From an uncultured archaeon (GTDB lineage Archaea; Asgardarchaeota; Lokiarchaeia; Sigyniarchaeales; SOKP01), in the NCBI GenBank assembly GCA_964525635.1, contig CAZGJX010000075.1, positions 1 to 14,386 on the forward strand: 14,386 nucleotides of DNA. Reading direction: 5' to 3'. This document shows, one piece after another, positions 1,666 through 14,386 of the stretch (position 1 is its first letter; every line of letters starts with the position of its first letter). Position numbers and translations under genes: made by a program. The notes beneath the pieces are model-generated. The model was not told where the DNA came from. It saw only the letters and a list, made by a program, of their open reading frames with translations, and made no database searches.

Positions 1666-2319
1666 TTATTTTTTTCTGTAAAAATATAGCGTTTTATAGG
1701 AGATTTCCTCTTTTTTTATCAGACCTATTTTACATAGTACTTTAACATATTTTGTCACTGTTTTTAAATGCATATTCAATTGTTCTGAAATACCCGTTTT
1801 AGTAATACCTCCATCAGCATTATTTTTAAGATGTTCTATAATCATTTTACATTTTTCATTTGAAAGATAATATCTTTGAATAGCATCCATAGGATCTAAA
1901 TTCGCATCAAAATATATATCATGATTATCCACTTGAATTTTAGAAATAAAATTAAACATTAATAACATATCTAAGTGCCATTTTACCACATGATTACTAA
2001 TATTCAATTCTTTAACTAAACAATAAAAATAGACTCCGGGATTTTCTTTAATATAATTAAATAGTTTTATCCTATTTGGATGCGTTAAGATATCTTCCTT
2101 AACTAATTTTGATCTTTTAACAATTAATCTTCGTTCTATTAATGATGAGATTATTTTAGCAATCCCTTCTTCATTGATATTAATTTGAGCATTTGTAAAT
2201 CTATTTTTAATATATGGAATGAGATTGGTAATATTTAAATAGCGATTTTTATTCAAATATTCTTGAATCATTTGATAAACTAATTTCTCTTTTTCTTTCT
2301 CCATTAAGGTGTAATTCAT
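1666..2319 (-). CDS. Winged helix-turn-helix transcriptional regulator with three predicted wHTH modules (ArsR/MarR-like, Lokiarchaeia-type)
   Basis: NRIKLFNYIKENPGVYFYCLVKELNISNHVVKWHLDML and GITKTGISEQLNMHLKTVTKYVKVLCKIGLI are wHTH-like, and the N-terminal third is also wHTH-like. GAGTGA lies upstream of the ATG, 41 bp after the GH9 gene stop. Confidence 0.85.
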   Translation of the reverse strand: MNYTLMEKEKEKLVYQMIQEYLNKNRYLNITNLIPYIKNRFTNAQININEEGIAKIISSLIERRLIVKRSKLVKEDILTHPNRIKLFNYIKENPGVYFYCLVKELNISNHVVKWHLDMLLMFNFISKIQVDNHDIYFDANLDPMDAIQRYYLSNEKCKMIIEHLKNNADGGITKTGISEQLNMHLKTVTKYVKVLCKIGLIKKEEISYKTLYFYRKK

Positions 2320-2360: not shown

Positions 2361-5300
2361 CTAAGAATTTAAATTATCCAACATATGATTGAATATTCTT
2401 TTTCTTTCTTCTGGAGTTAACGAGATCATTTCCTTAATAAATAAAAATTTCTCAGTTTCGTCCTTCCATTCAAGAAGTTCAATTTTTTCAAAAAAATCTT
2501 CTTCAAGTAAAGTTATTTCCATACCTTTTAATTTAGTCACCTTATCGATTATATTATTTTCATTTAATAAATCATTTAATTGAATATCTTTAAAAATATC
2601 ATCAACGGAAACCACTTCAGTTGTTTTTAGTTTCCAATATCTTTTTTCTAAAGGTTTATTTTTTATTTTTACTCTTTTCTTAGATTGAATTTCTTTTATT
2701 TTATTTGGAGTTGTATTTTTTTTATTTAATTTTGATCTTTTCACTTCTGTTAAATATAAAGTCACAACAGAAATTCCAATTAAGCTTAAAATTATAATTA
2801 ATGATATAATAAACAAAGAATCATTAATTTTAGTATCATCATTAAGAGTTTTAGCGCTAACTTCTAATGAAGGCCCACTTGGATTATTATATATATCAAT
2901 AGCTATTATGACATAATAATATGTTGTATCAGGAGTTAAGCCTGTATCGAAATATTGACTTATTGATGTATTTATGATAAAATTAGTGGAATCCGGCATA
3001 AAACCGGGAGTAATACTTCGATAGATTGAATATTTTTCAATATCTGGCTCAATATTATCACTCCAATCAATATAAATACTTGTTGGATTAATTTTTTCAA
3101 TTATAAGTCCTATTGGAGCTAATGGAGGATTAGTATCTTTGGTAGTTGTAGCACTCTCTTCCATTGATGAAACACTTGGATTACCATAAATGTCAATTGC
3201 TATCAATTGATAATAATATGTTGTACTCGGAGTTAATTCTGTATCGAAATACTGGCTTAATGATGTATTTGCGATAAAATTAGTGATGTCTGGAGTAAAA
3301 CTTGGAGTATTACTTCGATAAATTGAATACTTATCAAAATCAGGCTCAATATTGTCATTCCAACTAAGCTTAATATTTGTTGAATCAAGTGTATTAGCTG
3401 TGAGTCCTGTTGGAGCTGCAGGGCTATTTGTGTACATTTGTGGATCCAAACCATATATCCAAATTCCATTGTCATATACAGGAATATATTTATTTGGAAA
3501 TCTTGTACTATTTAAAGATTGAAAAGACCAATCATTTGTAGGATTCCACGCCTCATCTGGTGAAGCATCAGGTAATCCAATTCTAATTTGTGTTTCTTTT
3601 GCACATTCAACTTCACCAGCAGGATACAGTATAGTTCCTTTATAATCAACTTCTACATAATAAATATCATTTTCCAAATGAATTATTTCAGGAATATTAA
3701 TTATTGCTCCCGGCTCTGTCCAGATTGATGTAACTGTAATATCATTAGAAGTATATCCCCATGAATATATTTCGCTTATATTGAAATAATATCTATAAGA
3801 TAATTGGTCTGTTACTCTAGCAGGCCATGTCGCGTGATTTGCGAGATCAACACTAATCTCTGTCCAAGCAGTTCCATCTATAGTAAGCCTAGCATCACTG
3901 TAAATTTCGATAAGACTCATATTTTTAGGTTTAAACCATGAAGGGCCGGGAAAATCATTATGGGGTGTTCCTCCATATAAATCTGTCATTTTAGCTAAAG
4001 CACCTATTAATCCAGAATTATAATCACATGCAATAGATGTCCTCTCAAGAGTAAGTCTATCATCAGTCCAACTATCACTCATATCGGGACCTGACACAAG
4101 AGCACCATATAGAATGTGTCTATTATCGGCGGGTAAATTAGGTAAATTGGCCCAAGATCCATGGGCTGTTTCATGACGTGGATTTTGAGGTGAATTAGGT
4201 CCAAAACCAACAAGATAACTACTGCTTCTTGGATTATCACCAAGAATATATTTTATTTGTTCTTCAGCAAAATTATGATATATAGAAGCCTTTGAAGTGG
4301 TACAATTAGGGCTATCAGCCCATACAAACGCAAGAAAAGCAGCATTTGCAGCATATCTGAGTGATCCTAATGAAGCTAACCAAGCAAGACCTCCTGGAGT
4401 ATAGTCAATTCCCCCACCAGGCATCCACCAATCTAAATTTCTCTCGATTGAGTCTATATAGGTTTGATTAGTTGAGACTCTTGATAATAGAATTTGTGCC
4501 ATATAATGCATATCATTCCAACAATGCGTTGTTTGATATTTTATTTCTGTTTCATACTCCTCAATTGCCCAATTTGCTGCTGCTTGCTCAGATTTATCTA
4601 AATATGTTGTGTTTCCTGTCTTTATATATAATAATACTCCACAAGCTGATAATTCATCCCAAAAGCCATTTTCAGATTCATAATATGCTCCTGCTATTGA
4701 ATTATAAAAACTATCAGATTGAGCAGCCCATGCTAAATTATTTAATTGAATTGCATGGGTTAAGCAAATATCTGCATAAGTAGGATCTGAGTTATTAAAA
4801 ATAATCGAAGCTAAGGTTAAAGCCGCAGCTGTAGCCCCACAAACGGCAGATCCTCCTTGCGACGAAGTAACTCTATAAGAAGAACGACTCATTACTTCCT
4901 CAATTACTTCAGAAGGCCCCCACCAACTAGCATCAGAAACAGGATCACCTACTTGAAAATAAAATTCATTTGGATTAGGATTTGCTTTAATAAAATAGTC
5001 TGTTCCCCATTTAATTGCATCCAATATCTCATCTAGTTGGTCTATATTTTCAAAAACAGAATAATATTCATAAACACTCCACGCTAGTGTAGCTATAGTT
5101 GATGCCATAGGTAATCCAAATTTATTTGATCCACTACCATCATAATATCCTCCTGTAAGATCTAATCCTGAATCAATACCATCATTTAAACAAGAATCTC
5201 CCTTCCATATTACAGGATTATTATCTGTTAGATTGCCTGAACGTTGTTGCATATAGAAATATATCGATTTTTGTAATGCAGCTGCATAATTATCAATAGT

Positions 5301-5477
5301 TTCTTCAGGAGGAGGCCATGAAGCGCTATTAATATTGTTAGAAACTAGTTGGAATTTATAAGTATTATTTGATGAATTAGTTTCTATTTTTAGATTATTA
5401 AAATTAAATATATAATTACAAAATAAAAATAGAATGAGTATAGTACCATATAACTTTATTCTGCTATTTTTTGGCAT
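2361..5477 (-). CDS. Membrane-anchored GH9-like (catalytically degenerate) + CBM3c-like + 2xFN3 + TM + cytoplasmic domain protein; putative carbohydrate sensor
   Basis: N-terminal hydrophobic signal. GH9 scaffold motifs (NYAAALQKSIYFY..QRSG, DLTGGYYD, KFGLPMA, IKWGTDYFIKA, YFQVGD, YTPGGLAWL, GSLRYAANAAFLA, YILGDNPRSSSYLVGFG, GALVSGP, ACDYNSG) at about aa 63-497. CBM3c-like NHATWPARVTDQLSYRYYFNISE...KETQIRIG...WNPTNDWSF...IPVYDNG..IYGLDP. Two FN3 domains, TM at about aa 887-909, then a basic linker and acidic helical tail. Confidence 0.9.
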   Translation of the reverse strand: MPKNSRIKLYGTILILFLFCNYIFNFNNLKIETNSSNNTYKFQLVSNNINSASWPPPEETIDNYAAALQKSIYFYMQQRSGNLTDNNPVIWKGDSCLNDGIDSGLDLTGGYYDGSGSNKFGLPMASTIATLAWSVYEYYSVFENIDQLDEILDAIKWGTDYFIKANPNPNEFYFQVGDPVSDASWWGPSEVIEEVMSRSSYRVTSSQGGSAVCGATAAALTLASIIFNNSDPTYADICLTHAIQLNNLAWAAQSDSFYNSIAGAYYESENGFWDELSACGVLLYIKTGNTTYLDKSEQAAANWAIEEYETEIKYQTTHCWNDMHYMAQILLSRVSTNQTYIDSIERNLDWWMPGGGIDYTPGGLAWLASLGSLRYAANAAFLAFVWADSPNCTTSKASIYHNFAEEQIKYILGDNPRSSSYLVGFGPNSPQNPRHETAHGSWANLPNLPADNRHILYGALVSGPDMSDSWTDDRLTLERTSIACDYNSGLIGALAKMTDLYGGTPHNDFPGPSWFKPKNMSLIEIYSDARLTIDGTAWTEISVDLANHATWPARVTDQLSYRYYFNISEIYSWGYTSNDITVTSIWTEPGAIINIPEIIHLENDIYYVEVDYKGTILYPAGEVECAKETQIRIGLPDASPDEAWNPTNDWSFQSLNSTRFPNKYIPVYDNGIWIYGLDPQMYTNSPAAPTGLTANTLDSTNIKLSWNDNIEPDFDKYSIYRSNTPSFTPDITNFIANTSLSQYFDTELTPSTTYYYQLIAIDIYGNPSVSSMEESATTTKDTNPPLAPIGLIIEKINPTSIYIDWSDNIEPDIEKYSIYRSITPGFMPDSTNFIINTSISQYFDTGLTPDTTYYYVIIAIDIYNNPSGPSLEVSAKTLNDDTKINDSLFIISLIIILSLIGISVVTLYLTEVKRSKLNKKNTTPNKIKEIQSKKRVKIKNKPLEKRYWKLKTTEVVSVDDIFKDIQLNDLLNENNIIDKVTKLKGMEITLLEEDFFEKIELLEWKDETEKFLFIKEMISLTPEERKRIFNHMLDNLNS
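2850..3425 (-). repeat. Tandem FN3-encoding duplication, 297-bp period, inside the GH9-like gene
   Basis: Two ~99-aa units (W.DNIEPD..KYSIYRS.TP.F.PD.TNFI.NTS.SQYFDT.LTP.TTYYY..IAIDIY.NPS). DNA CTGTATCGAAATA recurs at 2942 and 3239. Confidence 0.85.
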
Positions 5478-5573: not shown

Positions 5574-5610
5574 AGTGCTATATAAGATCATATGGTAAAA
5601 GTTTGATGGT
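5574..5610 (-). promoter_or_regulatory. Promoter/operator motif copy 1 (TATA box CTTATATA preceded by ACCA-n10-ACCA) for the GH9-like/wHTH operon
   Basis: Minus strand ACCATCAAACTTTTACCATATGATCTTATATAGCACT, 32/37 identical to 5773-5809, ending 96 bp upstream of the ATG at 5477. Confidence 0.7.
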
Positions 5611-5772
5611 ATCTTTAAATTTGCCCATCCGCTCTATATATTTACCTCCTTACTTCTTATATTCTCTTACTTTCAAAATATATGGTTATAATCATTAAAG
5701 CATATCGTTCCAAAAAGAAATCAATATGAAAATGCTAAATTTCTATTTAAATGCTTTTTTATCAATAAATCA

Positions 5773-5809
5773 ACCATCACAGTTTTACCAGATGATCTTA
5801 AATAGAACT
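5773..5809 (+). promoter_or_regulatory. Promoter/operator motif copy 2 (TATA box CTTAAATA preceded by ACCA-n10-ACCA) for the GH5 gene
   Basis: ACCATCACAGTTTTACCAGATGATCTTAAATAGAACT is the inverted copy of 5574-5610, ending 61 bp upstream of the ATG at 5871. Confidence 0.7.
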
Positions 5810-5870: not shown

Positions 5871-6449
5871 ATGCCAAAAAATAAAAAAGACAAAATAGGA
5901 AATTTTACTTTTTTCTCTTTATTTGATCCTTCTTTTGGATTTTTTGTTCCATCAATGGAAGGATCTATATCTGGTTCTAAAATACAAACATCAGATATCA
6001 CTAAAGATGATTGGTATTATATTGTAGAAAATAGCGTCGCTCCATTATTTGAAGGAGAGTGGGGCGGTCCTGCTAGTGGTGAACTTCTGACGTGGTTGAA
6101 TGCAATAAGAGAATTTAAGCATGATATAAAGCTATATCATACTTTCTGGTGGTTTAATCCTAATTCTGGAGAAACTATTGATTTAGTAAGTGGTGGCTGG
6201 AAAATATTAGATCAAACAAAATACAATATAGTCGAACAATTATTATGGAAAGATAATGCTGGGGGTTATATTTCACATAATTATGAAGATGGACTTAATG
6301 CATATCTAACAAATATTATTGAATTAATAGCTAATTAAAATCCAGCACCGCTTCCTGGAGGAGATGGAGGTGATACTACCCCTCCAACTACTCCAACAGG
6401 AATAAATCCTGATAGTGAAATATATCTAAATTTAAGTAGATTACAATGA
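5871..6449 (+). pseudogene. Internally deleted GH5 (subfamily 1-like) endoglucanase with linker and start of an FN3 domain
   Basis: WYYIVENSVAPLFEGEWGG...WLNAIREF...HTFWWFNPNSGET..LV...D.TKY.....LW matches the C-terminal part of GH5_1 cellulases, including the nucleophile motif GEWGG. The N-terminal barrel with the NEP acid/base is absent. The frame continues after TAA 6336-6338 as NPAPLPGGDGGDTTPPTTPTG (linker plus FN3 start) to TGA 6447-6449. Confidence 0.8.
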
Positions 6450-8126: not shown

Positions 8127-9173
8127 TTAATTCATCAGAAATATCATCAAACTCAAATTAAAGTAGAATAATTGATACGAACTAACCATTATTCTTTCGA
8201 TTAGACCCTTGTATTTGCTTTGTGCGAGGATACCCGATACAATAACAAGAATTACAGATAAAATTGCTGAAATAAGTGAATATATAGCAAAACCACTCCA
8301 AGCAGGTACTGACTGTAAACGGAACCAAAGTGCTACCATCCCAATAATAGTTAATATTCCTGATGCAACTACAAGAATTAGATGCATTTTTCCCTTGAAA
8401 GTTATTATTTCACCTCCTTCATCAAGAGGGTAAAAAAAAAGCAACGAGTATTCCTAAAATTGAACTAATTAAAAAGAGAATAGGTCCTAGAATTGACCCT
8501 CCTCCATCAGTTATACCTTCATGTAATCCAAGATAAAATACAAACAATAAAACACTTGAACATATAATAAATGATTGTGCTAACCGTTTGTTAGGGGCTC
8601 CAACAGCAAAAAGCGAACTTATATCGTTTCGAATATGACTATAATCTTTTTGTAGTTTACCGAAAAGAATCCACATAAGAATAAACCCATAGTATCTAAA
8701 AAAATAGACAAATCTGGACACTATAAAAATCCATATATGATTTAGATATAATATTCTTTGGCTATTTATAACACTCTTAATAGAAAATTATCACTATCTT
8801 CTCATTTAAAAACTAGTATGACATATAATAGAATAATGACATTAGGAGCTGATTTAACAATAGAAAAATAATACGTAATTGGATTGAAAATTATAATTTC
8901 TCTGATGATTGGAAGTGATTTGGATTAGAAAATATATTATTGAGGATTTCCCTCGATTGTGGAAAAAGAATCCCGTTTCGGGAAAGAATATGATATTCGC
9001 TTTTCGAGATAGCTATATGTTATTCTCGAGACCGTCCGTTGTCGGTCACTCAGGCATCTATTTAAAGATGTAAAAGAAAAAAAAATTTGTCCAGAAATGT
9101 CCAGATTTTTTACAACGGTATATACAATTGGACTAAACATTCCACACAATGCAAGAATCCTAAAAAGAATTAT
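8127..9173 (-). pseudogene. DUF998-family membrane protein, split by an insertion (8686-9118) and a homopolymer frameshift (A9 at 8432-8440)
   Basis: Deleting 8684-9120 joins RILALCGMFSPIVY in frame to ILMWILFGKLQKDYSHIRNDISSLFAVGAPN. Removing one T of the T9 tract gives VAFFYPLDEGG...GKMHLILV...GLIERI. The YS...ISSL..VGAP, MH and GL.ER motifs fit DUF998. The likely start is ATA at 9173, after a GAGGT RBS. Confidence 0.8.
8686..9118. mobile_element. ~433-bp non-autonomous MITE-like insertion (no transposase), CC...GG termini, subterminal TCTGGACA motifs
   Basis: Interrupts the DUF998-like gene, and excision restores the frame. The ends (C)CCATAGTATCTAAAAAAATAGACAAATCTGGACA and CCGTTGTAAAAAATCTGGACATTTCTGGACA (reverse complement) form an imperfect inverted repeat. 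Flanks are TAAA/TATA (imperfect 4-bp or TA duplication). The right end is also present at 22-54. Confidence 0.72.
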
Positions 9174-9480: not shown

Positions 9481-10059
9481 TCATCTTCTTTTATTCCAAT
9501 CAATTCCTTTAATACAAATACTTGTATTAACAGAACCATCCCATTCCACATTAAGATCATATTTTTTAATCGTCTGGAAAATTATATTACCGATTTCAAG
9601 AGCATCCTCATCTGTTCCACTTATGGAATCATAAGATAGATAAAGGGTACCCAATTCACAATCACGTTCAGTATCCTATGAATGATAGAAAGTATAACCA
9701 ATTGGTTTTGAATGCTCCTTAAATATCTTAATTTCATAACCAATTTCAGAATGACCACAATTATTACAACAGGCAAAGTTTTGTCGTGCTACAATACCTT
9801 TTTCCTCTAATTTTGCAAATATATCATCGATTTTATCACAATCAGTGGGATCTTTCCATGTATTTTGCTCTTTATCATGTTGACTGAAGAGTTTATCTAT
9901 TAAACTTTCAATATAAATTGTTTGATCATCTCTCTCATATTCCTCCTCAACCATTTCTACTAAAATTTCAATTATATCTTCTCTAATTTCGAAACCTGCT
10001 TTAACTCTATATTCAATCTGTTCTTGTATATTTTTTTTTATTTCATTAGTATCGACCAT
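9481..10059 (-). pseudogene. DUF6891-like protein with one in-frame TAG (9676-9678)
   Basis: LEEKGIVARQNFACCNNCG...GYTFYHS* then in-frame DTERDCELGTLYLSYDS...ALEIGNNI...LNVEWDGSVNTSICIKGIDWNKRR* to TGA 9481-9483. The TAG sits where FYHxQD would have Gln. Confidence 0.75.
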
Positions 10060-10559: not shown

Positions 10560-12905
10560 TCAATATTTTTTAATTTTTTTTTTGTAGACTAGAACGACAG
10601 TGAATATAATAGATATCGATGAAATAGCTAACAGAAGTAACAAATCTGGTCCTGAAATATTATTTATATTTACTCTTATCGTCACTTCAACTTGATCTGT
10701 AATAAAATAACCTCTCCTATCTGTTATATTCATTCTATAAGTGTATTCTCCAAGACCTATCCCATCATCCTCCTCATCATGGAGCACATATCTAATTTTT
10801 CCTCCACTTGACCAAGAGGTTGGCCCTTCAACGATACCTGTTCCTTCAAGTGTAATTGTATAAGTATCTGGATTACGATCAGTTGCTGTCCAAATAAGAG
10901 GTTCAGAAACAAAATTTCGTGTTAAGGTAATATCGCTTGGTTTTAAATTTATTTCCGGAGGTTTAAAATCAGTAATACTCACCTGTATTACACCTAAACC
11001 CATTCCACTACAAGCAACATATGCATAATCTCCACTTATATGTATATCCTTTGCACCAGTACCCGCTTCACGATAAATGGGAGTTCCTGGATTTGTAGGA
11101 TTTGATATATCTATAGCCCAAAGTGCCCATCCAGCTCCAAGATAAGCATAATCTCCACTTATATAAACATCATCAGGAACTTGTTGTGAAGTAATATTTA
11201 CAAAGATTGGAGTTCCTGGATTTATAGGATCAGTGATATCTACAACAACTAGACCAGTATTTAAATCATTAAGATTATAATAAGCTATATAAGCATAATT
11301 TCCACTCACACATATTCCATTCGCTACAATATTTATATCGTAATAAATAGGTGTTCCTGGATTTTTAGGATTTGAAATATCTATTATAGCTAAACCAGCA
11401 TAACTATTAGCAATATATGCATAATCACCACTTATATATATTTTATTTGTATAATCAGTAGTATTACAATATATTGGAGTTCCTGGATTTGTAGGATCTG
11501 AAATATCTATAATAGCTAAACCACAATTTATTCCTTGATAATCATGATATGTAAGATACGCATAATCTCCACTCACATATATTCCTCTTGTTGTTTCATA
11601 TATATTCTGATATATAGGTGTTCCTGGATTTGTAGGATCTGAAATATCTATTATGGCTAATCCTACATCACCATTAGCAATATATGCATAATTTCCACTT
11701 ATATAAATATCATATGCAGTACCCGTAGTATCTCTAAATATAGGTGTCCCTGGATTAGATGGATCTGATATATTAATGATCGCTAAACCTTCCCAATCAT
11801 TAGCTATATACGCATAATCTCCGCTTACATATACTCCTCTTGCTGTGTCGTCGGTGCTTCTATATACATTAGTACCTGTATTTATTGGATATGACACATA
11901 TATAATAGCTAATCCTGCATCATCATTAGCAACATATACATAACTCCCACTTTTAAAACCATCATATGCAATACCATTTGTATCAGTATATTCATGAATA
12001 TCTGGATTTTTCGGATTTGCAATATATATAATAGCTAAACCTGAAGATCCACCTGTAACATATGCATAATCTCCACTTATATAAATTCCCAAAGCATAAC
12101 CAATTGTATCTTCATACATAGGAGCTCCTGGATTTGTAGGATCAGAGATATCTATTATAGCTAAACCAGCATATCCATTAGCAACATATGCATAATCTCC
12201 ACTTATATAAACACCCATAGCCTCACCAATTGTATCTTCATACACAGGAGTTCCTGGATTTGTAGGATCAGAGATATCTACAACAGCTAGACCAGAAGCA
12301 CTATCAGCAATGTATGCATAATCTCCATCTATATAAACATCCATAGCACCACTAATTGTATCCTCATACACAGGAGTTCCTGGATTTGTAGGATCAGAGA
12401 TGTTTATAACAGCTAGACCAGAATCACCATCAGCAATATATGCATAATCTCCACTTATATAAACATCATATGCAAGTCCCGTAGTATCTTCATACACAGG
12501 AGTTCCTGGATCCGTAGGATCAGAGATGTTTATAACAGCTAGACCAGAATCACCATCAGCAACATATGCATAATCTCCACTTATATAAACACTCATAGCA
12601 TCACCAATTGTATCCTCATATACAGGAGTTCCTGGATTTGTAGGATCAGTGATATCTACAACAGCTAGACCAGAAGCACCATCAGCAACATATGCATAAT
12701 CTCCATCTATATAAATACCATAAGAATTACCCTTAGTATCCTGCTCATATGTATCTAATGCATTATTCTTTAATACAGTATTATTATCTATACTTATTGC
12801 ATAATTAGTTGATATTGGAATGAATAAAAAGCATATCATTACTATCAGTGCTGTAAGTATACAAAAAACTCGAGCTTTTAAATTAAGACTATATTTTTTC
12901 TTCAA
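10560..12905 (-). CDS. LVIVD-repeat cell-surface protein with Ig-like stalk and C-terminal TM anchor (Loki-CTERM-like)
   Basis: TTG start after a GTGA RBS, signal peptide, about 14 repeats of GDYAYVADG.SGLAVIDISDPTNP, a D..PP.I Ig-like domain, and an ISGP-hydrophobic-KKKIKKY tail. Confidence 0.9.
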   Translation of the reverse strand: MKKKYSLNLKARVFCILTALIVMICFLFIPISTNYAISIDNNTVLKNNALDTYEQDTKGNSYGIYIDGDYAYVADGASGLAVVDITDPTNPGTPVYEDTIGDAMSVYISGDYAYVADGDSGLAVINISDPTDPGTPVYEDTTGLAYDVYISGDYAYIADGDSGLAVINISDPTNPGTPVYEDTISGAMDVYIDGDYAYIADSASGLAVVDISDPTNPGTPVYEDTIGEAMGVYISGDYAYVANGYAGLAIIDISDPTNPGAPMYEDTIGYALGIYISGDYAYVTGGSSGLAIIYIANPKNPDIHEYTDTNGIAYDGFKSGSYVYVANDDAGLAIIYVSYPINTGTNVYRSTDDTARGVYVSGDYAYIANDWEGLAIINISDPSNPGTPIFRDTTGTAYDIYISGNYAYIANGDVGLAIIDISDPTNPGTPIYQNIYETTRGIYVSGDYAYLTYHDYQGINCGLAIIDISDPTNPGTPIYCNTTDYTNKIYISGDYAYIANSYAGLAIIDISNPKNPGTPIYYDINIVANGICVSGNYAYIAYYNLNDLNTGLVVVDITDPINPGTPIFVNITSQQVPDDVYISGDYAYLGAGWALWAIDISNPTNPGTPIYREAGTGAKDIHISGDYAYVACSGMGLGVIQVSITDFKPPEINLKPSDITLTRNFVSEPLIWTATDRNPDTYTITLEGTGIVEGPTSWSSGGKIRYVLHDEEDDGIGLGEYTYRMNITDRRGYFITDQVEVTIRVNINNISGPDLLLLLAISSISIIFTVVLVYKKKIKKY
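12040..12720. repeat. 126-bp tandem coding repeats (42-aa LVIVD units)
   Basis: TATGCATAATCTCCA occurs at 12061, 12187, 12313, 12439, 12565 and 12691, an exact 126-bp period. Confidence 0.95.
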
Positions 12906-13081: not shown

Positions 13082-14386
13082 TTAAATGATATTAATAAAA
13101 GTTATAATCAAATTCATAGTTCTCTTTTTTTTTTCTCTTAGGAAAATAAAAATTATTATTGAAAATCCAATACATCCAATCAATATGACTGGATGATATC
13201 CCAAAATACTTGGAGCGTTATCATCTCTTTTAAACCAATAATCTTTCAAAATGATTTCAAAATCTAAGGTATGTCTAGAATTTACAGTACCATTATAGTG
13301 ATAATAGGATAAAAGCCCTGTAGATTTATCCCATTTTTCATGAATGCTATAGTTTTCATTCATTGCATGGTATCCAAAAGTTGTTGCATTGTTAATGATT
13401 TCTACTTCTGGGTCCCCAAATATAAATTGACCATGACCCTGATACCATAAAGCTATATCATCCCATGTCCAACTTGCACTAGGTGGGCGAACTTCACGGA
13501 TCCAAAAAGGACCTTCAACTGGAATGCCGGGAATTATTTCAGGATTACCATAATACCAGTTTGGATCTCCATCATGACCATCGGATATAATTGTAACATT
13601 TGACCATGATAAACCATTTGTAGAAGAAACATACATTATTTCTGTATCTGGATAACTACCCCAAAATCCATTTGTTGTTTCCATCCAAACAACATGAATT
13701 CCTCCCGAACTATTGACTGCGATAGAGGGAAAAAAACTATCACCATCATTCCAATATATTCCATTATATCCATCTGAAATAACAGTAGCATTTGACCATC
13801 CCAATCCATATGTGTAATTCGAGTACATAATCTCAAGATCAGTTCCCCAATCACCTTCAGTATAATCCTGCCATACTAAATGAAGATTTTCCAATGAATC
13901 TATAGTAATACCTGGAAAATTACTACTCTTAGTATTCCAATATATACCATTAAGGCCATCTGAAATAACAGACGCATTTGACCATCCTAAACCATTGGTA
14001 TAATTAGTATACAATATTTCTTTATCATCGGTTAAATGTGTCCAAATCCCTTCTGAATTATCATCCCAAACAACATGAATAACATTTGAATTGTCAACAA
14101 CAATAGCAGGATTTAAACTATCACCATCATTCCAATGAGTTATATCATCTGAAATAACTGTTGCATTTGACCATCCCACTCCTTCTGTATAGGATGAATA
14201 CATTATTTCTGTATCATTTCCCCAGATGCCCTCTGTAGTATCCTCCCAGACAACGTGAATATAATTTAAATTATCAACAGCGATAGCAGGATTTTTACTA
14301 ATACCATCATTCCAATATACTCCATTAAAACCATCTGAAATAACTGTTGCATTTGACCATCCCACTCCTTCTGTATAGGATGAATA
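13082..14386 (-). CDS. Repeat-rich (BNR/beta-propeller-like) surface glycoprotein with C-terminal TM anchor (Loki-CTERM-like); 5'-partial
   Basis: The frame is open to the window end. ~62-aa repeats WSNATVISDG...WN.G.S..P.IAVD....IHVVW.D.T.G.WG.D.EIMY, many N-x-S/T sequons, and a PSILGY-hydrophobic-REKKKR tail. Confidence 0.85.
   Translation of the reverse strand, partial: YSSYTEGVGWSNATVISDGFNGVYWNDGISKNPAIAVDNLNYIHVVWEDTTEGIWGNDTEIMYSSYTEGVGWSNATVISDDITHWNDGDSLNPAIVVDNSNVIHVVWDDNSEGIWTHLTDDKEILYTNYTNGLGWSNASVISDGLNGIYWNTKSSNFPGITIDSLENLHLVWQDYTEGDWGTDLEIMYSNYTYGLGWSNATVISDGYNGIYWNDGDSFFPSIAVNSSGGIHVVWMETTNGFWGSYPDTEIMYVSSTNGLSWSNVTIISDGHDGDPNWYYGNPEIIPGIPVEGPFWIREVRPPSASWTWDDIALWYQGHGQFIFGDPEVEIINNATTFGYHAMNENYSIHEKWDKSTGLLSYYHYNGTVNSRHTLDFEIILKDYWFKRDDNAPSILGYHPVILIGCIGFSIIIFIFLREKKKRTMNLIITFINII
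14146..14386. repeat. Perfect 55-bp direct repeat (14146-14200 = 14332-14386), 186-bp period
   Basis: CATCTGAAATAACTGTTGCATTTGACCATCCCACTCCTTCTGTATAGGATGAATA occurs twice; the second copy runs to the window end. Confidence 0.9.

Follow-up and report, generated by a model that had tools for sequence, protein, structure and literature searches.

The closest described counterparts of the gene analysed here are two membrane proteins of Clostridium (Acetivibrio) thermocellum. The glycoside hydrolase (GH) module of one of them, Rsi24C-GH5, has lost its acid/base residue and binds crystalline cellulose (PMC3526467), and that of the other, RsgI6-GH10, is a binder of xylan and cellulose with very low activity (PMC4711584). 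Here we describe a gene of an uncultured archaeon of the Lokiarchaeia (Sigyniarchaeales, SOKP01) that encodes a 1038-residue protein of what appears to be a similar design: an outer GH module that is predicted to be inactive, a single pass through the membrane and an inner part that is predicted to hold a transcription factor, in an organism that also makes dockerin-borne enzymes. The window, that is, the whole stretch of DNA that was analysed, comprises bases 1–14,386 of contig C75 (CAZGJX010000075.1) in a 4.45-Mb assembly of 245 contigs (assembly G000; GCA_964525635.1); it is AT-rich (about 30% GC), and the nearest named proteins come from 'Candidatus Lokiarchaeota archaeon' assemblies. Our best reading of the gene, and a fairly probable one, is that it encodes a non-catalytic GH9-CBM3c transmembrane receptor whose tail binds a winged helix-turn-helix (wHTH) regulator.

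The likeness to the RsgI sensors has clear limits. The topology is reversed, the sensor being N-terminal and the inner domain C-terminal; there is no RsgI_N domain, and the inner domain belongs to no Pfam family; and the adjacent gene encodes a multi-wHTH protein, not a SigI-type sigma factor. To our knowledge, sigma factors do not occur in archaea, to which this host belongs. Its module combines GH9 with CBM3c where the Clostridium proteins have GH5 or GH10, and carbohydrate binding, shown for the Clostridium modules, is here only a possibility. Thus, if our reading is right, the receptor works like the RsgI family, yet with its reversed topology, its wHTH partner and no RsgI_N it is not a member.

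A GH fold that outlives its catalytic acid also has precedents in family GH18. In the chi-lectins the GH18 fold, without the catalytic acid, has been reused for binding. The protein described here resembles these lectins and the xylanase inhibitor XIP-I in that the fold was kept after loss of the acid, the reuse for binding being theirs; unlike it, they are soluble, have neither an anchor nor a paired regulator, and conserve their binding sites, whereas the cleft of the Lokiarchaeal protein is relaxed. GH18-derived xylanase inhibitors are cited as reference 69 in PMC3526467. In the open-access literature that we searched for inactive GH9 modules, Asgard cellulosomes and Lokiarchaeal GH9, no description of the present system was found.

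Results

As judged by alignment, the GH9 domain is one without the catalytic base and acid of its family, in an intact fold. It occupies residues 64–494 (3996..5288, minus strand), where Pfam Glyco_hydro_9 matches over its full length (profile 1–444 of 444; E 5e-125, 418.7 bits), in agreement with alignments, an AlphaFold2 (AF2) model and Foldseek, and with the span of 3985–5291 given in an original prediction made from the DNA letters alone. That prediction held that the acid, the base and the active-site His/Arg are all replaced in a conserved fold. We counted residues along alignments to Cel9G (1g87, 547 bits) and to Thermobifida fusca Cel9A, or E4 (1js4), neither with large gaps, and both confirmed it. 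In 1js4, D55 and D58 are the base residues and a Glu is the acid (PMC4221708). The equivalent of D55 is kept (D113), and that of D58 is G116. The acid Glu, which we take to be E424 in E4 numbering, corresponds to S481. H125 is replaced by A183, H376 by R434, R378 by E436, Y420 by L477 and V421 by E478, while H377 is kept as H435. The motifs quoted in the prediction, GGYYDGSGSNKF, SDASWW, PRHE and DDRLTLERTSIACDYN, are all present as written, with correct residue numbers.

These replacements are not chance variation, because the columns concerned are invariant (D58, H125, H376 and E424, 119/119) or nearly so (R378, 98%) in the reference set of 119 active homologues; here and below 'active' means, as a sequence criterion, that the catalytic set is kept, and 'dead' that the catalytic residues are gone. 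Nor are they single sequencing errors, since several of the codons at the replaced sites (GGA, GCT, CGT, GAA, CTT and TCT) lie at least two base changes away from the canonical residue, as with Glu changed to Ser (TCT) or His to Ala (GCT).

The scaffold is conserved around the changed sites. Of the 105 columns with a conservation of 95% or more among active enzymes, the window copy retains 88. The AF2 model of residues 55–650 has a predicted local distance difference test score (pLDDT) of 89.3 and a predicted template modelling score (pTM) of 0.89, and Foldseek superposes it on Cel9G with a TM-score of 0.94 and a root-mean-square deviation of 1.6 Å over 592 columns, with both modules matched. 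The protein shares the two-module fold (about 590 residues, 43–44% identity, TM-score 0.90–0.94) with the processive GH9-CBM3c endoglucanases Cel9G (1g87), T. fusca Cel9A/E4 (1js4), BlCel9A (8u49) and CelR (7unp). Unlike those secreted or dockerin-borne enzymes, it is anchored in the membrane and has a cytoplasmic tail, and it also differs from them in the replacement of the equivalents of D58, E424, H125, H376, R378, Y420, W209, W256 and W313. From the Cel9A literature we take W209, W256, W313 and Y420 to be the aromatic sugar-stacking platforms of the E4 cleft, and H125 likewise to be an active-site residue of E4. The earlier claim that several cleft Trp residues remain was only partly right: W185, W186 and W320 (E4 W260) are kept, but the W209, W256 and W313 equivalents are E269, T316 and L370. 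The E4 equivalents kept in the window copy are D55, Y206, W260, D262, R317, Y318 and H377.

The window gene is not the only one of its kind. Seven full-length GH9 genes are present in this genome, four of the active type and three dead. The active ones, on contigs C110, C31, C32 and C97 (contig labels of this form, C8 to C222, refer to this genome), keep DAGDH, HHR or HHD, and NE, whereas the two dead paralogues read DGSNN, QHS and NR (C222) and DDDGY, RHS and NR (C33). A survey of 101 genomes of the order turned up GH9 in just two genera, that of the window (4/4 genomes) and one more. The catalytic residues are likewise missing from ten relatives, which come from metagenomes and from four genomes of a single Lokiarchaeal genus, and the dead types of the genus are DGS[SN]N / QHS / N[RK], NDGGY / [NS]HR / TG, the C33 form and the window copy. 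When 50 GH9-CBM3c sequences were placed in a maximum-likelihood tree, the 11 dead ones grouped as a single clade, with a Shimodaira–Hasegawa-like approximate likelihood ratio test (SH-aLRT) support of 99, which stays at 98 when 26 trait-bearing columns are removed. This clade is sister to a dockerin-bearing active group that includes C110, and the window copy branches first within it. The nearest relatives by the tree all lack both DAGD and NE, so that no close orthologue with the catalytic motifs stands against the prediction. As the root of the tree was not inferred, the direction of change is taken from the active state being universal outside the dead group; a single loss of catalysis followed by duplication and divergence would be the simplest history.

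Within the dead clade the cleft positions have gone different ways. The W209 position holds E, K, Q, H or F, that of W256 T, S, Q or E, that of Y420 L, a gap, S, P, K or T, and that of H125 six different residues, while W313 is replaced (by Leu) in the window copy only. The acid position is S, R, K or G and the base position G, N or S in the dead lineages, and D55 has become Asn in the type B lineage. Y206, W260, D262, R317 and H377 are kept across the clade; Y318 is kept in the window copy and is Phe in the others. In one type B pair, 12 of the 17 changed cleft positions are conserved, compared with 77% for the whole domain. The variation would fit either relaxed constraint or a divergence of ligand specificity between paralogous sensors.

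We compared rates of change in the GH9-CBM3c region by the method of Nei and Gojobori. Two pairs of dead orthologues gave ratios of non-synonymous to synonymous change (dN/dS) of 0.17 (dS 0.19) and 0.18 (dS 0.87), similar to those of active pairs (0.07–0.24). Comparisons of the window copy with its paralogues are saturated (dS 1.06–1.32), and their dN/dS was not used to judge selection on it; its best matches are active proteins at 61–63% identity. Measured from the base of the dead clade, however, the path to the window copy is the shortest (0.30 changes per site, compared with 0.46–0.63 for the others), its 1038-codon frame is open, as predicted, and its tail keeps all the invariant and near-invariant residues of the tail family. 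Neutral simulation with the base composition of the genome gave a mean of 23 stops at 25% amino-acid divergence, and even at 5% divergence only 0.5% of runs were free of stops. The short path, the conserved tail and the improbability of such a frame under neutrality together support the view that the window copy is maintained and not decaying. The original prediction had proposed selection for binding without hydrolysis: the selection is borne out by the low dN/dS of the dead clade and the intact frame, but the binding is not, as the stacking residues of the cleft are lost clade-wide. A reading as a pure pseudogene was rejected on the clade, dN/dS and open-frame evidence.

The gene (2361..5477, minus strand) encodes, in order, an N-terminal signal or anchor, the dead GH9 domain, a CBM3c module, two FN3 domains, a transmembrane helix and a cytoplasmic tail, as seen from the open reading frame translation, Pfam and a hydrophobic segment at 882–900. 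The CBM3c module (about residues 515–650; 3528..3935, minus strand; Pfam CBM_3 at 536–610, the column table and the structural match) is joined directly to the barrel, and the alignment to 1g87 runs to the final residue of 1g87. At the CBM3c positions that are taken to face cellulose in E4, the protein has the same or a similar residue (W538, D579, I580, W586, E628, Q630 and R632), and so does the active sister C110. Two FN3 domains (about residues 655–862; 2892..3515, minus strand; two Pfam fn3 stretches) would serve as a stalk, and a helix at about residues 876–900 (2778..2852, minus strand; hydropathy scan and sequence) is followed by a Lys/Arg-rich stretch, with 138 further residues beyond. 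Apart from GH9, CBM_3 and fn3, Pfam found no family over the whole protein. The N-terminal hydrophobic segment and the helix near the C-terminus suggest a type I membrane protein, with GH9-CBM3c-FN3-FN3 outside and the last ~140 residues inside. By the positive-inside rule a Lys/Arg-rich flank marks the cytoplasmic side, so the stretch after the helix places the tail in the cytoplasm.

The build of the dead genes is shared among them. All dead copies with an assembled C-terminus (the window copy, C33, C222/C8, P0012 and P0026) carry FN3, a transmembrane helix and the same cytoplasmic tail; of the active paralogues, C110, C31 and C97 end in a type I dockerin and C32 carries CBM4_9 modules. The C222 gene (3-2678, minus strand) runs off its contig, and FN3 repeats resume at the start of C8 (2-952, plus strand), followed by the helix and the tail; the two look like halves of one dead-GH9 receptor gene, with the break within near-identical FN3 repeats.

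The tail domain itself (residues 945–1038; 2364..2645, minus strand) is helical and conserved, with an invariant E-R in our alignment A1. No Pfam family (at E≤0.1) and no RsgI_N was found in residues 880–1038, and a search of 5.8 billion proteins with the single sequence 945–1038 returned only the query. A profile built from 11 copies, when run against 1.84 billion proteins, found 284 representative clusters at E≤0.001. In these the match is nearly always C-terminal, in proteins of 60–1900 residues, and the large ones carry Laminin_G_3, right-handed beta-helix, SBBP, LVIVD or sialidase-like CBM domains. The profile is matched in 74 of the 101 genomes of the order and at 15 places in this genome, the window copy at 2e-30. 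Since the tail is found in so many genomes and on many ectodomains, and GH9 is nearly confined to the genus, the tail system is old and modular, and the GH9 ectodomain a genus-level recruit. There are also free-standing proteins of 95–110 residues that consist of the tail only (C10:8715-8999, C39:18152-18445 and C8:1977-2306), which could compete with receptors for wHTH regulators.

Downstream of the receptor gene by 42 nucleotides (nt), on the same strand, lies a gene for a 217-residue multi-wHTH protein (1666..2319, minus strand; Pfam HTH_24 and HVO_0163 N-terminal HTH). Its paralogues adjoin tail-bearing genes on C8, C33, C70 and C155 and lie near one on C13, and in locus L055 of GCA_016926735.1 the dead GH9 gene P0012 is followed by one whose 150-residue product shares 44% identity with residues 1–146 of the wHTH protein. 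A tail gene and a wHTH gene are thus paired in at least six loci (C75, C8, C33, C70, C155 and L055); among the dead receptors with an assembled C-terminus, every locus inspected has the multi-wHTH gene immediately downstream. On C8 the wHTH gene (984-1649) comes after the end of the receptor gene and precedes the tail-only frame. The wHTH partners of the C33-type (L052:84-572 on C33, 163 residues) and type B (L055:7708-8157, 150 residues) receptors are without the third wHTH domain of the 217-residue protein. In two other assemblies, the gene that immediately precedes the type B dead GH9 receptor gene encodes an Arf/Ras-family small GTPase of 185 residues (L055:3207-3764 and L056:743-1300).

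We predicted the complex of the tail (945–1038, alignment A1) with the wHTH protein (alignment A2) in three runs, alongside three controls. The interface score ipSAE was 0.80 in all three runs, and 0.00 for the best control; in calibration, 58 of 80 solved complexes attained the mark, as did 2 of 110 mismatched pairs. At least 91% of contacts are common to the runs, with a partner pLDDT of at least 72, and the contact surface predicted on the regulator (residues 15–121) lies in the part that is present in the versions of 150 to 163 residues. This model supports binding of the tail to the adjacent wHTH protein.

The region upstream of the receptor gene contains a promoter-like element (5574..5617, minus strand), with a 22-nt core at 5574–5595 in which a TTATATA box lies. 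A second copy (5766..5809, plus strand) faces a GH5 gene remnant, and the two copies form the arms of a 44-nt inverted repeat, 82% complementary, in the divergent intergenic region. The core, CCATATGATCTTATATAGCACT, has five matches in the genome at up to 4 mismatches, compared with none in the reversed genome, and all are confined to the receptor/GH5/tail system: 96 nt before the ATG of the receptor gene of the window, 61 nt ahead of the GH5 remnant, 52 nt ahead of the full-length C47 gene for GH5, upstream of the tail-only frame on C8 just past the C222/C8 receptor-wHTH pair, and about 1 kb upstream of the C33 receptor. No useful motif came out of a search for exact 9- to 12-mers common to the sequences upstream of five receptor genes.

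The genes around the receptor were predicted to be decayed, which is right for two of them. One is the divergent GH5 cellulase remnant (5871..6338, plus strand), whose 155 residues make up the last third of the barrel, carry GEWGG and FNPNSG, and are 51% identical to C47:10061-10402, a segment inside the full 958-residue frame of a GH5-FN3 gene (C47 9044-11917). Past its stop, up to 6449 on the plus strand, the sequence continues in another frame with a Pro/Gly/Thr linker and the beginning of an FN3 domain, as in the C47 gene; 5871–6449 (plus strand) is a cellulase gene in decay, with one copy of the promoter element still in place. The other is a DUF998 membrane-protein gene (8127-8721, minus strand), split into two overlapping open reading frames (profile 7–89 and 89–179) by a frameshift, an insertion or an assembly error. 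A 127-residue DUF6891 protein (9676-10059, minus strand) covers profile positions 3–123 of 189 only and may be truncated. Between 6479 and 8008 (plus strand) lies the gene for an SBBP beta-propeller protein with a C-terminal type I dockerin (E 5e-12), by its domains a non-enzyme passenger for a cohesin scaffold in an archaeon. Two large repeat proteins (10560-12905 and 13082-14365, both minus strand), one with 13 LVIVD repeats and the other with a 'GWSNATVISD' repeat and no Pfam family, have a C-terminal transmembrane helix and almost no cytoplasmic tail, in contrast to the long tail of the GH9 protein.

Discussion

The retention of a GH9 module without its catalytic residues is best explained by three features that the original prediction did not include, namely a membrane anchor, a conserved cytoplasmic tail and an adjacent wHTH regulator. 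In the mechanism that we propose, two FN3 domains would display the inactive GH9-CBM3c ectodomain on the cell surface, one helix would anchor the receptor, and its cytoplasmic tail would bind the multi-wHTH regulator encoded downstream. Binding of a ligand outside would alter the hold of the tail on the regulator, by release or capture, and this in turn would alter transcription from promoters with the 22-nt element, among them those of the receptor gene itself and of one or more genes for GH5 cellulases. Candidates for the ligand are cellulose or a glucan, bound via CBM3c and what remains of the cleft, or possibly a protein.

Several points weigh against this proposal. The canonical sugar-stacking residues of the cleft are lost, and differently so between dead lineages, and the cleft columns of the dead clade give no positive sign in sequence of a conserved ligand site. 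The window copy has no orthologue above 63% identity in three congeneric genomes and the protein collection, so that the case for selection on it draws on the clade, on its open frame and on comparisons at saturation (dS >1). The AF2 model of the tail alone is of moderate confidence (pLDDT 64.8), and ipSAE is the model's own confidence, obtained with small alignments of our own and only roughly calibrated. The promoter core has only five matches, and the copy that lies about 110 nt before the C33 receptor gene, spotted by eye only, departs from it at 6 positions. Finally, as the neighbouring GH5 gene is only a remnant, the local module may be partly obsolete.

The same gene could be read in other ways. 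It might encode a surface adhesin, in which the dead GH9-CBM3c ties the cell to cellulose or holds glucan for dockerin enzymes and the tail does not signal. A membrane-anchored protein with an FN3 stalk, on which the CBM3c face is kept, would suit this role, and the genome has active dockerin-bearing GH9 and GH5 enzymes able to use such a tether. A plain anchor, however, has no need of a conserved 90-residue cytoplasmic domain, let alone one that is repeatedly paired with a wHTH gene that it is predicted to bind and that also occurs as free-standing small proteins; moreover, loss of the cleft platforms would weaken the holding of a chain. We consider an adhesin unlikely, if the most plausible of the alternatives. 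Could the gene instead have been disabled recently and be heading for decay like its GH5 neighbour? The signs of local decay in that remnant and in the split DUF998 gene, the missing orthologue in the three congeneric genomes and the loss of W313 in the window copy alone would be expected if so. Yet catalysis was lost at the base of a clade in which the other members evolve under purifying selection. The frame of 3.1 kb is open at a genomic GC content of 30%, at which so few simulations survived 5% neutral drift without a stop; the tail has lost none of its family's conserved residues, and the wHTH partner is intact at its full 217 residues. Recent disablement is thus very improbable.

It is also conceivable that the protein is an enzyme still, in which E436 or E478 serves as a relocated acid and D113 as the base, with weak hydrolysis or another substrate. 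Catalytic residues can migrate in pseudoenzymes, as noted in PMC10211241, D113 (E4 D55) is indeed kept, and E436 occupies the position of Arg378, beside the catalytic centre. E436 is, however, unique to the window copy. A Glu at the position of E478 is found together with a normal acid in the active C110 paralogue (DFEMNEV) and occurs in 8 of 127 aligned sequences, so it was inherited and is not compensatory; E478, named in the original prediction as a conceivable acid, is thus unlikely to be one. The base Asp, the acid Glu, His125, His376, Arg378 and Tyr420 were replaced together, and by different residues in each dead lineage, a pattern that points to relaxed constraint rather than to a new catalytic set. 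As the centre has lost the base Asp and four further residues, residual catalysis seems very unlikely.

If the receptor proposal holds, it may be one case of something wider. We can envisage an order-specific Asgard signalling system made of a variable ectodomain, a helix, the tail and a wHTH protein, in which one genus recruited a dead cellulase for the sensing of plant fibre and the control of cellulosome-like enzymes, an archaeal counterpart of RsgI/SigI of independent origin and made of unrelated parts; this is a real possibility, though we would put it at slightly less than even. The warning that automated annotation would count such proteins as cellulases has already come true for the dead relatives P0012, P0016 and P0017, which are labelled 'glycoside hydrolase family 9 protein'. 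Counting the window gene and its two dead paralogues in this way would overstate the cellulolytic capacity of the organism, as three of its seven full-length GH9 genes are dead. The tail-wHTH pair is short and soluble, a candidate DNA element is defined, and the active C110 paralogue provides a built-in control for assays. If true, the proposal would mean that a design convergent with the sensors of C. thermocellum arose from a different inner domain and a wHTH partner, and it would offer a testable entry to transmembrane signalling and gene control in archaea, about which little is known so far.

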